Made by a program: the position numbers and the translations under genes. Below the pieces are notes generated by a model. That model was not told the DNA's origin, did no database searches, and saw nothing but the letters and a program-made list of their open reading frames with translations. 64,000 nt of DNA from Octopus vulgaris (lineage: Eukaryota), in NCBI GenBank assembly GCA_951406725.2, contig OX597828.1, positions 44,268,001 through 44,332,000 of the forward strand, read 5' to 3'. This document shows positions 3,071 to 27,332 of the stretch, piece after piece. Within the stretch, counting starts at the first letter, position 1. Each line of letters starts with the position of its first letter.

Positions 3071-3139
3071 AATACCAATAATCATTTCTAATTTTGACTG
3101 AAAGCCAATAATTTTTGTGATCAGACGGTTAGTTAATTA

Positions 3140-3300
3140 CAGCTATCCCAATAATCAACTAGTACATAATTCATCTAACGCTAAAGGATGAAAAGCAAAC
3201 ATGACGTCGGCAGAAATTGAACTCAGAACCTAAAGACGGACGAAATGTAGCTAAGTATGCTACCCGGCGTGCCAACGATTCTGCCAGCTCCCCGCCCTTA
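3140..3300 (-). mobile_element. SINE family M, diverged copy
   Basis: aaaggatgaaaagcaaa...gaactcagaac...ttctgccagctc. Confidence 0.7.
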
Positions 3301-3353
3301 CATGTCATAACATACTAACTCCGGTTAGTCCAAAGAATACACTGTGTGTTACA

Positions 3354-3620
3354 TCTATTATATAAAATTCGTTCTGTCTGTCTATCTGTCTGTTTGTCTG
3401 CGTCTTCTAGGGTCTCGGGCATCCTCCATCCGATTGCGCTCAAATTTGATATGTAGATACCGACAGTATCAGGGCGTGTATAAGTCTTGAAAAAATTACA
3501 AAAATCGAATCCAGGTGAGAATGCGATCGATAAAGCCGTGGGAACGTGCATTTGTACGCGCAAGTACATCAGCTGTTGCGATTGATACTACGTACGCGAG
3601 AAAAATGCAACTGTGGTTGG
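3354..3620 (+). mobile_element. Probable non-autonomous Helitron 5' portion (3' end not found)
   Basis: A|TCtattatataaaa start followed by (CTGT)n, resembling the 5' end of the Helitron at 61909. Confidence 0.45.
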
Positions 3621-4095
3621 CGCAAAAAAGCCGGCTGGCTTGACATAATGTCACAAAATGGGACGGTCGGACATGTAGCTTTGAGAAAATTTGGTTTAAA
3701 TATTTGACAACTCAGCACTGTCCATTGCTCGTACATATATTACACTGCGCAAAGATTCTTCGCAACAAAACGAAAATTATTCTCATTCGCCCATATAGAA
3801 TGCTACATGATTAACTCACTACCGTAATCCAAAGAAGCTAAAGCTTCTCAAATTCACACCAGTCACACCTCGTAACATTAAACTCGCGATCTTCAAACAA
3901 AGACGTGTATAAAAGCCAGAAAGGATAGCATCAATTATTCTTTCCCTTTCTTTCAAGATTTATATATTTTAATTACTTTACAACACATGACTGTGCTCAG
4001 TTCTTCCCTGAACTGTGAATTTATAAATAATTATTACAAAACGTTGGTGGTGGGCTGGGTGAATCTTCAACACTACATCGCCTACATCATGTTCT

Positions 4096-25069: not shown

Positions 25070-25560
25070 TTATTTCTTTATTGCCCACATACATAGAGGG
25101 GGCAAACAAGGACAGACAAACAGATTAAGTCGATTACATCGACCCCAGGGCGTAACTGGTACTTAATTTATCGACCCCGAAAGGATGAAAGGCAAAGTCG
25201 ATCTCGGCGGAATTTGAACTTCGAACGTAACGGCAGCCAAAATACCTATTTCTTTACTACCCACAAGGGGCTAAACACAGAGAGGACAAACTAGGACAGA
25301 CACACGGATTAAGTCGATTATATCGACACCAGTGCGTAACTGGTACTTATTTAATCGACCCCGAAAGTATGGAGGGCAAAGTCAACCTCGGCGGAATTCG
25401 AACTCAGAACGTAGCGGCAGATGAAATACCTATTTCTTTACTACCCTCAAGGGTAGTAAAGATGGTCAAATTGATGACATTAGTCCTGGTGCTCAAAGGC
25501 TTCTTATCTCATCGATGCCGAAAATACGAAAGGTAAAGTCAACAGAAGTTGACTCCACGT
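25070..25560 (-). mobile_element. Tandem/nested SINE family M copies
   Basis: Two ~185-bp units joined at aaatacc|tatttctttactaccc, a third tail start, and a decayed copy. Confidence 0.85.
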
Positions 25561-25679
25561 AAAGATCCCAAACAATGTTGTTAATCATTTAGCTCTATGC
25601 AGTAATGTTATGACGTGGGCAAACACGTTTGGTGGAAAGTGGTATAACACAAATAAATAGTTGGTTCTGGTTATCTAGA

Positions 25680-26280
25680 AGAACAACAAGCCTCCTGTGA
25701 GCGACGAAAAATGGAACGGCTACTGGGAGGTGGCTGCAGATTTACCAGGGTGCCAGCGACTCTTTCCCATCCCAGTTACAAAAATCCGGATATTTTAATG
25801 TGGTGTGAAAGAAAGAAAGTTGTGAACCTGGTCGGGTTCACGGTTCCTCATGAAGATAACATGGACGCCGCTCGGTCTCGAAAGATTGACCGTTTTGTAA
25901 ACCTCCTCGAGGAATATGAAGACGCAGGCTGGAAAGCGGAGCATTTTTCAATCGAAGTCGGATGTAGAGAGATTTTTGGACGCAGTGAGACCACTGTTGT
26001 TATCGTTAAATCGTAAAATGAATACCACCATGACCGATATCCAAAGTAAAGTGGCGAAGGCTAGCCACTGGATTTGGTTAAAAAGAGACGATGAGCGATG
26101 GCTGGGGGAATATTGAGCTTTATTTGATAACCAGTTGATCTAGCAAGTGGGGCTCTCATTTCAGTGGGGGTTGGGGTCGGCGATGCACATTGATGCAGTC
26201 GAGAGGTAGGCCCCGAAACGGCATGGATTCTCTCCTGGTGACCTCATACATTTGCTGGCTTCCGGTGTGAGGAGCTCTCG
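25680..26280 (+). mobile_element. 3' end of an RLE-type non-LTR retrotransposon (HERO/NeSL-like) with 3' UTR
   Basis: PDILMW...KVVNLVGFTVPHEDN...RK...GWKAEHFSIEVGCR (PD-(D/E)xK RLE region), then frameshifted KASHWIWLKR, stop at 26116. Confidence 0.8.
26173..26241 (+). ncRNA. Rearranged (non-circularly permuted) hammerhead-like motif, core A6>G
   Basis: GGGGTC(26173-78)/GGCCCC(26209-14); ATGCAGT(26193-99)/ACGGCAT(26218-24); GAGAGG(26201-06)/TCTCTC(26229-34); GTC triplet, GAAA and CTGGTGA each sit next to the correct helix. Confidence 0.6.
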
Positions 26281-27332
26281 ACTTTTAGTACTCGCATGTG
26301 CAAGTTGTTTGCAAAACATCAAAATAATCTATTGCAGAAATATTTGTTAACACAGAATGCACTCCATACTACTCGAACATAGGTATGATACACAGTATTC
26401 ACCGTTCAACTCTCGACTATTAAACCAACACAAGACGAACTGACACGGTAAACCGACACGGTCGAACTAACATCATTAGCTACGTTCCTGATAGTTTATT
26501 CAGTTCTTGTTTATTGTAATCGGTTAGTCCACCTTGATCAAGTAGGAGTGTTCAGGATTCTCTCATAACAAGTAACCGTTCTGATAGCTCGTAGCCTTAT
26601 ATTTCCTTCAAATTTCAAAACAAGCCGGCTGTTTGGAAGTGGTAGGAATTTGTCGATTATACCATTCTAGGTATTTGGCTGGAACTATATTTTATCGACG
26701 CTGGGTGAATAAAATGAAAAGTGGTCTTCGATGAGATTAGATCACGGAATGTAAAGAACTAGAACAAATTGTGAAAGCCATTTTTTAACGCTTTAATGGA
26801 TTCTAATAGTTACAAAAACTGCAGGAAAGACAGGGAGATTTAGTTTACGATAATGTCAACAAACAGACAATCACCATCTGACCAACTTCAAGGACAATAT
26901 ATTATCAACAACGGCTAACATACCACTCCATCACACTTCCAACTCTTCCCACAGCCCATCTATCTCAATTACAATACACTGTTTAATCGCAACTCCTGGG
27001 ATCAAATTGCAGTGAAAAAACCAAGTGTAAATATAAATCTCAAACAGAAACAAGCCACAAAAAATAATAAAGAAATCATCCAAATATTTGCTTTTCTGTT
27101 CTTTTCTTTTTTTTCTTCTCTTTTTTTTGTTGTTGTTGTTGTTGTTGTTACAGTGAAAGCTGCGGTGGCGGAAGTGAAATATAATGGCGGTGTTGTGAGG
27201 AAGAAATGAAATGACACGAAGTAGCCCGGATGTAGAGAGAATGTTTTAATAATATAAATACATAACCTCAAAGAACTCATTGTATTCTATTATATTTTCT
27301 TCATATTAATTCTGTCATATACATATATATAT

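Follow-up and report, generated by a model that had tools for sequence, protein, structure and literature searches.

A conserved split-core hammerhead fold in HERO-like LINE 3' UTRs, predicted to self-cleave and likely to free a unit-length RNA

We found that HERO-like LINEs carry in their 3' UTR a conserved and covarying hammerhead fold, which is predicted to self-cleave and likely frees an RNA of unit length; this RNA would be joined into a circle and then, starting at an internal site, reverse transcribed for more than one round. We hold this account, taken as a whole, to be fairly probable. The motif is almost certainly a real hammerhead fold and very probably cleaves, and we infer cleavage and circles from the arrangement of genomic copies. 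This is a known kind of ribozyme in a new layout, with a likely unusual life cycle.

The window, that is, the whole 64-kb stretch of DNA that was analysed, contains a 5'-truncated copy of the element with 82.7% identity to a young natural copy. Its parts are as follows.

25677..26323, + strand: 5'-truncated LINE copy, ~650 bp, equal to positions 3087-3735 of the 3,738-nt unit
25677..26116, + strand: frameshifted C-terminal stretch of the LINE's single ORF, with the stop codon at 26114-26116
26140..26152, + strand: helix P0, 5' strand
26152..26171, + strand: extra hairpin H, running into G10.1
26173..26178, + strand: stem II strand from G10.1, apart from CUGANGA
26194..26200, + strand: stem III strand with U16.1 (26199) and C17 (26200); cut predicted after 26200
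26201..26208, + strand: stem I strand (26201-26206) and a 2-nt linker
26209..26223, + strand: stem II strand (26209-26214) up to C11.1, GAAA (26215-26218) and stem III strand (26218-26223)
26229..26241, + strand: stem I strand (26229-26234) and core CUGGUGA (26235-26241; CUGAUGA in the family)
26242..26258, + strand: helix P0, 3' strand, immediately 3' of A9
26259..26323, + strand: 3' tail of the element up to the common 3' boundary, ~120 nt past the predicted cut

The ORF remnant at 25677..26116 presumably represents the restriction-like endonuclease region. The original prediction had claimed hammerhead elements in a scrambled order behind the LINE stop codon, and all of them are present at the positions it gave, the motif beginning 57 nt past the stop codon. 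In the window, stem II comprises 6 bp including one G-U (26173-26178 with 26209-26214), stem III pairs 26194-26199 with 26218-26223 with one A.G mismatch, and stem I pairs 26201-26206 with 26229-26234. With a descriptor permitting the A6>G core, 26200 was the only site in the 64 kb, on both strands, that scored at least 8 (10 of 12), and none of 2,000 shuffles of the 230-nt motif region reached 8. Upstream of the LINE fragment, positions 25100-25455 hold two head-to-tail copies of a ~175-bp repeat, probably a short interspersed repeat.

The family is large: preliminary candidates numbered 2,484 by DNA (40 scored) and 15,019 by protein (150 scored). An Octopus sinensis protein matched at 85% over one third of the query, and the host is probably an octopus. 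Intact natural motifs lie, for instance, at L061:9140-9260 and, in a distant relative, at L097:3608-3731. The hammerhead core consensus is C3 U4 G5 A6 N7 G8 A9, G12 A13 A14 A15 and U16 H17 (PMC3088659), and among 58 family copies CTGATGA was intact in 53, as predicted for the family consensus, GAAA in 55, GTC or GTT in 56 and the full core in 50. The window copy itself has A6>G in its core, which bears out the suspicion that it is decayed. The ACTGCAT that had been expected in the family was wrong: the mismatch stems from the 5' strand of stem III, where the family has GCCGT (45/58) pairing with ACGGC (45/58). Copies are dispersed, and their flanks appeared by inspection to be diverse and often TA-rich. 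One locus (L067) has two parts in inverted arrangement, resembling twin-priming products.

Young copies contain a single ORF of 1,115 aa with a reverse transcriptase domain (Pfam RVT_1), and R2 proteins were the best matches of the element protein in a PDB search. The C-terminal part of this ORF contains putative zinc-knuckle and restriction-like endonuclease motifs and gave no Pfam match there. The label HERO for the family is likewise a putative one, based on protein motifs. No relatives of the element were found in viral contigs. Two contigs titled as bacterial MAGs (L224, L225) contain both element and motif and are probably misbinned host DNA, though L225 sits in a 539-kb contig. The HERO clade is described as having little target specificity or a preference for microsatellites (PMC4640811).

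The order of the motif is P0a, hairpin H, IIa, IIIa-UH, Ia, linker, IIb-GAAA-IIIb, Ib-CUGANGA and P0b. P0 and hairpin H are two conserved helices that the original prediction did not include, and they extend the motif to ~26140-26258. The motif does not form the nested three-way junction of types I, II and III, in which the block order is CGS, GSC or SCG. Its blocks run S, G, C, and its three stems cross; as had been claimed, it is no circular permutation of type I, II or III, and the backbone is open between A9 and stem II. A9 is not covalently adjacent to a stem II strand: it enters P0, and G10.1 comes only after hairpin H. P0, H and stem II together with the sheared G.A pairs would form a four-way junction that holds A9 stacked on G10.1, so that the core geometry would survive. 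When IIa was placed from P0 and H alone, it paired with IIb at 95 of 100 positions, and the G10.1-C11.1 pair occurred in 18 of 20 motifs, percentages that lean high because the sequences here and in the 13-sequence alignment below were chosen for having stems; strands swapped between families gave at most 74 paired positions. Only 2 of 74 related UTRs fit a true SGC reading, with the stem II strand adjoining A9.

An Rfam scan returned no ribozyme match in the window or in 21 related loci, and no hammerhead match in the window or 10 related loci, in line with the expectation that a standard search would miss the motif. Nested folding gave z values of -0.24 and -0.38, which is no stability signal from a method that cannot model pseudoknots.

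Relatives were drawn from 80 metagenome loci that encode related proteins (25-63% identity), of which 74 extend at least 120 nt beyond the ORF match. Of these 74 related 3' UTRs, 23 fitted a strict descriptor and 27 a relaxed one, the descriptor ranges having been tuned on the same loci, and with either descriptor the controls gave 0/74 reverse strands, 0/64 ORF stretches and 0/1,480 shuffles. Four further stretches scored 11-12 of 12, two of them fetched later (L224, L225) and two outside the first scan windows (L081, L092). In a quickly built protein tree with many unresolved forks, motif-positive loci are spread over most of the branches. The remaining 47 of 74 UTRs failed the relaxed descriptor, and many of them appear decayed or truncated. 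Two loci (L109:535-700 and L135:421-590) keep CUGAGGA and the flanking stems but have no GAAA at its usual position; this is a decayed or modified form. The hammerhead motif is missing from one clade (L115-L132). Its members have another common 3' sequence with hairpins after the ORF match, which could be a different structured RNA; six scanned loci of the clade gave no Rfam match.

The relatives yielded 20 non-redundant motifs. MAFFT misaligned the 5' half of the 20, so 13 were realigned by sequence only and 7 dropped. Across the 13 realigned relatives, 90% of 279 cells were paired. Of the 22 pairs, 17 had changed on both sides, and each of the three stems showed compensatory changes; none of 500 shuffles was as good, and slid controls reached 36-49%. 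Covariation, which the original prediction had proposed to look for across 3' UTRs, is present. The tertiary pair 3-8 was C-G in 18 of the 20 motifs, U-G in one and U-A in one. A swap from C3-G8 to U3-A8 occurs in L092 (with a 1,165-aa open frame), L105, L108, L120 and L154, and may have arisen only once or twice. Two sites with U3 and G8 (L078:2228-2237 and L081:2278-2287) are possible intermediates between the two states.

We then turn to what precedes the copies. The unit measures 3,738 nt, and the predicted cut lies 126 nt before its end. The best 30 copies with a 5' UTR start, two of which resemble segmental twins, were all preceded by the element's own 3' end at the same fixed junction, without indel scatter. 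The 3' end in front was 31 to more than 1,500 nt long in 29 of them and 13 nt in the thirtieth. In 22 of the 30 the upstream part extended past the upstream cut, and in 18 it held a whole second ribozyme. Upstream and downstream parts of one locus have variants in common, namely 11 substitutions and one deletion in L062, four substitutions in L063 and one in L061, and different young loci have no substitution in common in their upstream parts. When 18 loci were compared at non-CpG markers, the upstream allele equalled the locus's own downstream allele in 62 of 72 minor cells and in 387 of 390 major cells. A nearest-neighbour test on the upstream part of the 18 loci (own downstream part closest in 4, tie in 6, another closer in 8) was indecisive because both parts mutate after insertion. 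The layout recurs in other species: the ORF starts again after the 3' UTR in L081, L096, L102, L108 and L111, a 3'-end piece stands ahead of the 5' UTR in L082, L097 and L105, and L092 was assembled with a terminal overlap. From the fixed junction, the common variants and the recurring layout, it follows that one unit-length template is copied more than once.

Nine of the 30 junction-bearing loci (L169, L171, L173, L175, L176, L177, L182, L183 and L184) are short and internally deleted, with different breakpoints, and all nine retain the 5' UTR and the ribozyme. At L061:5620-5715 (fold z -2.39) the 5' UTR contains four or five small hairpins whose loops are of the GAAAGA type, and such hairpins also follow the 3' UTR in the distant relatives L079, L096, L102 and L108. 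They are possibly a protein-binding or cap-independent translation element.

The mechanism that we favour would run as follows. Cleavage would occur after N17. A copy preceded by a partial copy of ~205 nt or more has two ribozymes 3,738 nt apart, and a read-through transcript of it would be cut twice. The monomer thus released would carry a 5'-OH at one end and a cyclic phosphate at the other, and ligation would close it into a circle. Target-primed reverse transcription would begin ~115-125 nt from the seam and cross it, so that the two-ribozyme layout is regenerated. A monomer left unligated would instead yield a 120-nt copy starting at the cut. On a wider reading, to which we give an even chance, HERO-like LINEs would be autonomous retrotransposons with a circular RNA genome: a split-core, four-way-junction hammerhead would cut out the 3.7-kb unit, and the circle would be translated capless and primed internally, leaving the element with no true 5' or 3' end and with a need for more than one unit per insertion to remain mobile.

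Copies of the kind expected from a primed, unligated monomer were found. Two pattern searches identified five independent copies of 120-122 nt (L186-L189 and L192) that begin at the first base past the cut and differ in flanks and subfamilies. Seven control searches, at offsets +6 (twice), +10, +14, -19, +41 and -41, found no true 5' end, with control seeds of similar sensitivity (34-41 of 57). The control matches were rejected on inspection as one internal change, one rearrangement junction in L176 and 22 C-run expansions, these last judged from the matched letters. For the AT-flank set, four of five events fell at one of five offsets, giving p ~0.007 by our own arithmetic on small numbers. 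These five copies, small as their number is, would be a trace of cutting in vivo, as read from the genome.

None of the sequencing runs that contain the element is recorded as RNA. Contigs from four runs that we guessed to be RNA were searched as well; such contigs cannot show ends, strand or circles. The junction from 3' to 5' end was bridged in three of the four runs, and internally deleted forms were prominent; the deletion joint in contigs of runs X5 and X11 equals that of the genomic locus L169, which has two ribozymes. One contig crosses the cut, which fits religated RNA, uncleaved RNA or DNA, and an X1 contig of 1,283 nt overlaps itself by ~25 nt, which is no proof of a circle.

An active ribozyme acting on linear templates is the first alternative to be weighed. 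The upstream ribozyme would set the 5' end, the downstream one would often stay uncut, and the reverse transcriptase, on reaching the 5' end, would jump either onto the redundant 3' region or onto another RNA molecule. Most cDNAs pass through the cut, so uncleaved templates fit too; the short copies starting at the cut and the common variants agree with this alternative, and a template switch was seen in L176. The 5' end of R2 is made by a ribozyme, and the R2 reverse transcriptase is reported to copy across non-continuous templates (PMC6765202). Against it, 0 of the 30 long copies stop within 10 nt of the upstream cut, jumping would have to leave the junction free of indel scatter in all 30, and two identical ribozymes would need to behave differently. 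We regard linear templates as unlikely.

LINE proteins bind near the 3' end of their RNA, where this motif also lies, and it might be a hammerhead-like structure with a role in binding or regulation, as a protein landing site or a self-destruct switch, whose cleavage in vivo is slow or absent, with the tandems arising from uncleaved read-through or end-to-end template jumps. The crossing of the cut by RNA-like contigs would suit such a role, as would the detachment of stem II from A9, which the published permutation scheme assumes to be impossible (Eckert et al., PMC10085705). Yet the catalytic core is conserved in full, as are the NUH rule and the 3-8 pair, five copies start exactly at the cut, and in uncut tandems the two parts should drift apart as lineages of their own, which they do not. 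This second alternative appears distinctly improbable, and the self-cleaving, circle-forming mechanism remains the one that we prefer.

According to the original prediction, the ribozyme defines the 3' end of the retrotransposon RNA, which its position in the 3' UTR with a cut downstream of the ORF would allow. Of 59 boundaries read, in a read-out limited to copies that hold the site, 57 clustered to within 8 nt around a single position that lies ~120 nt past the predicted cut, and the other two continued into a tandem copy, and sibling loci from other species have 87, 133 and 197 nt in common past the cut. The claim failed on these boundaries, and we give it very little credence. Chance complementarity in a GC-rich UTR, for which the lack of an Rfam match and the ordinary folding energy could speak, is refuted by the shuffles (0/1,480 and 0/2,000) and by the compensatory changes at 17 of 22 pairs.

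Our literature search of openly available article texts found neither a description of hammerheads in HERO elements nor one of the split-block layout. Hammerhead variants with extra helices were reportedly described by Weinberg in 2015, and a similar extra-helix variant may be among them. If our reading is true, a hammerhead that is not circularly arranged exists in thousands of copies in animal genomes, in a layout assumed impossible by a recent scheme. In the standard picture of R2-related LINEs, priming takes place at the 3' end of the RNA; the circle model of Penelope elements would, if our reading is true, become a testable mechanism in an R2-related LINE. This has a bearing on how LINEs retain their 5' ends, and also on the elements that are being developed as tools for inserting genes.

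The closest published hammerheads are those of the scheme of six permutations, in which CUGANGA and its flanking strands ('block C') are taken as inseparable, and the examples given there were taken from metatranscriptomes and metagenomes and include no eukaryotic genome and no retrotransposon (Eckert et al. 2023, PMC10085705). A further trait of type SGC is an extra helix that links distal stems I and II. Like type SGC of that scheme, our motif has the order cleavage site, GAAA, CUGANGA, a short I-II linker, three crossing stems and a full core; unlike it, the stem II strand lies 5' of everything, whereas in SGC it comes after CUGANGA, and block C is split, with helices P0 and H filling the gap (PMC10085705). 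With block C split, the layout falls outside the six published permutations.

Among retroelements, Penelope-like elements resemble ours in having a hammerhead in an autonomous retroelement, a U3-A8 variant, the covariation of which is known there, and a partial tandem layout, and a circle with more-than-unit copying has been proposed for them (Cervera and De la Pena 2014, PMC4209133). The Penelope hammerheads belong to the minimal type I and sit in the terminal repeats of elements with a GIY-YIG endonuclease (PMC4209133), whereas here a full pseudoknotted fold lies in the 3' UTR of a LINE with reverse transcriptase and restriction-like endonuclease. The R2, L1Tc and RTE elements are likewise non-LTR elements with a self-cleaving RNA, but in their case an HDV-like fold lies at the 5' end and sets free a linear RNA (PMC6765202), and ours is a hammerhead within the 3' UTR. 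Retrozymes share the proposed path from two hammerheads through monomer and circle to reverse transcription; they are short and non-coding, with type I or III hammerheads, in contrast to a 3.7-kb unit encoding its own 1,115-aa protein (PMC6765202; bioRxiv 10.64898/2026.07.22.740005). The internally deleted derivatives found at 9 of the 30 loci are retrozyme-like.
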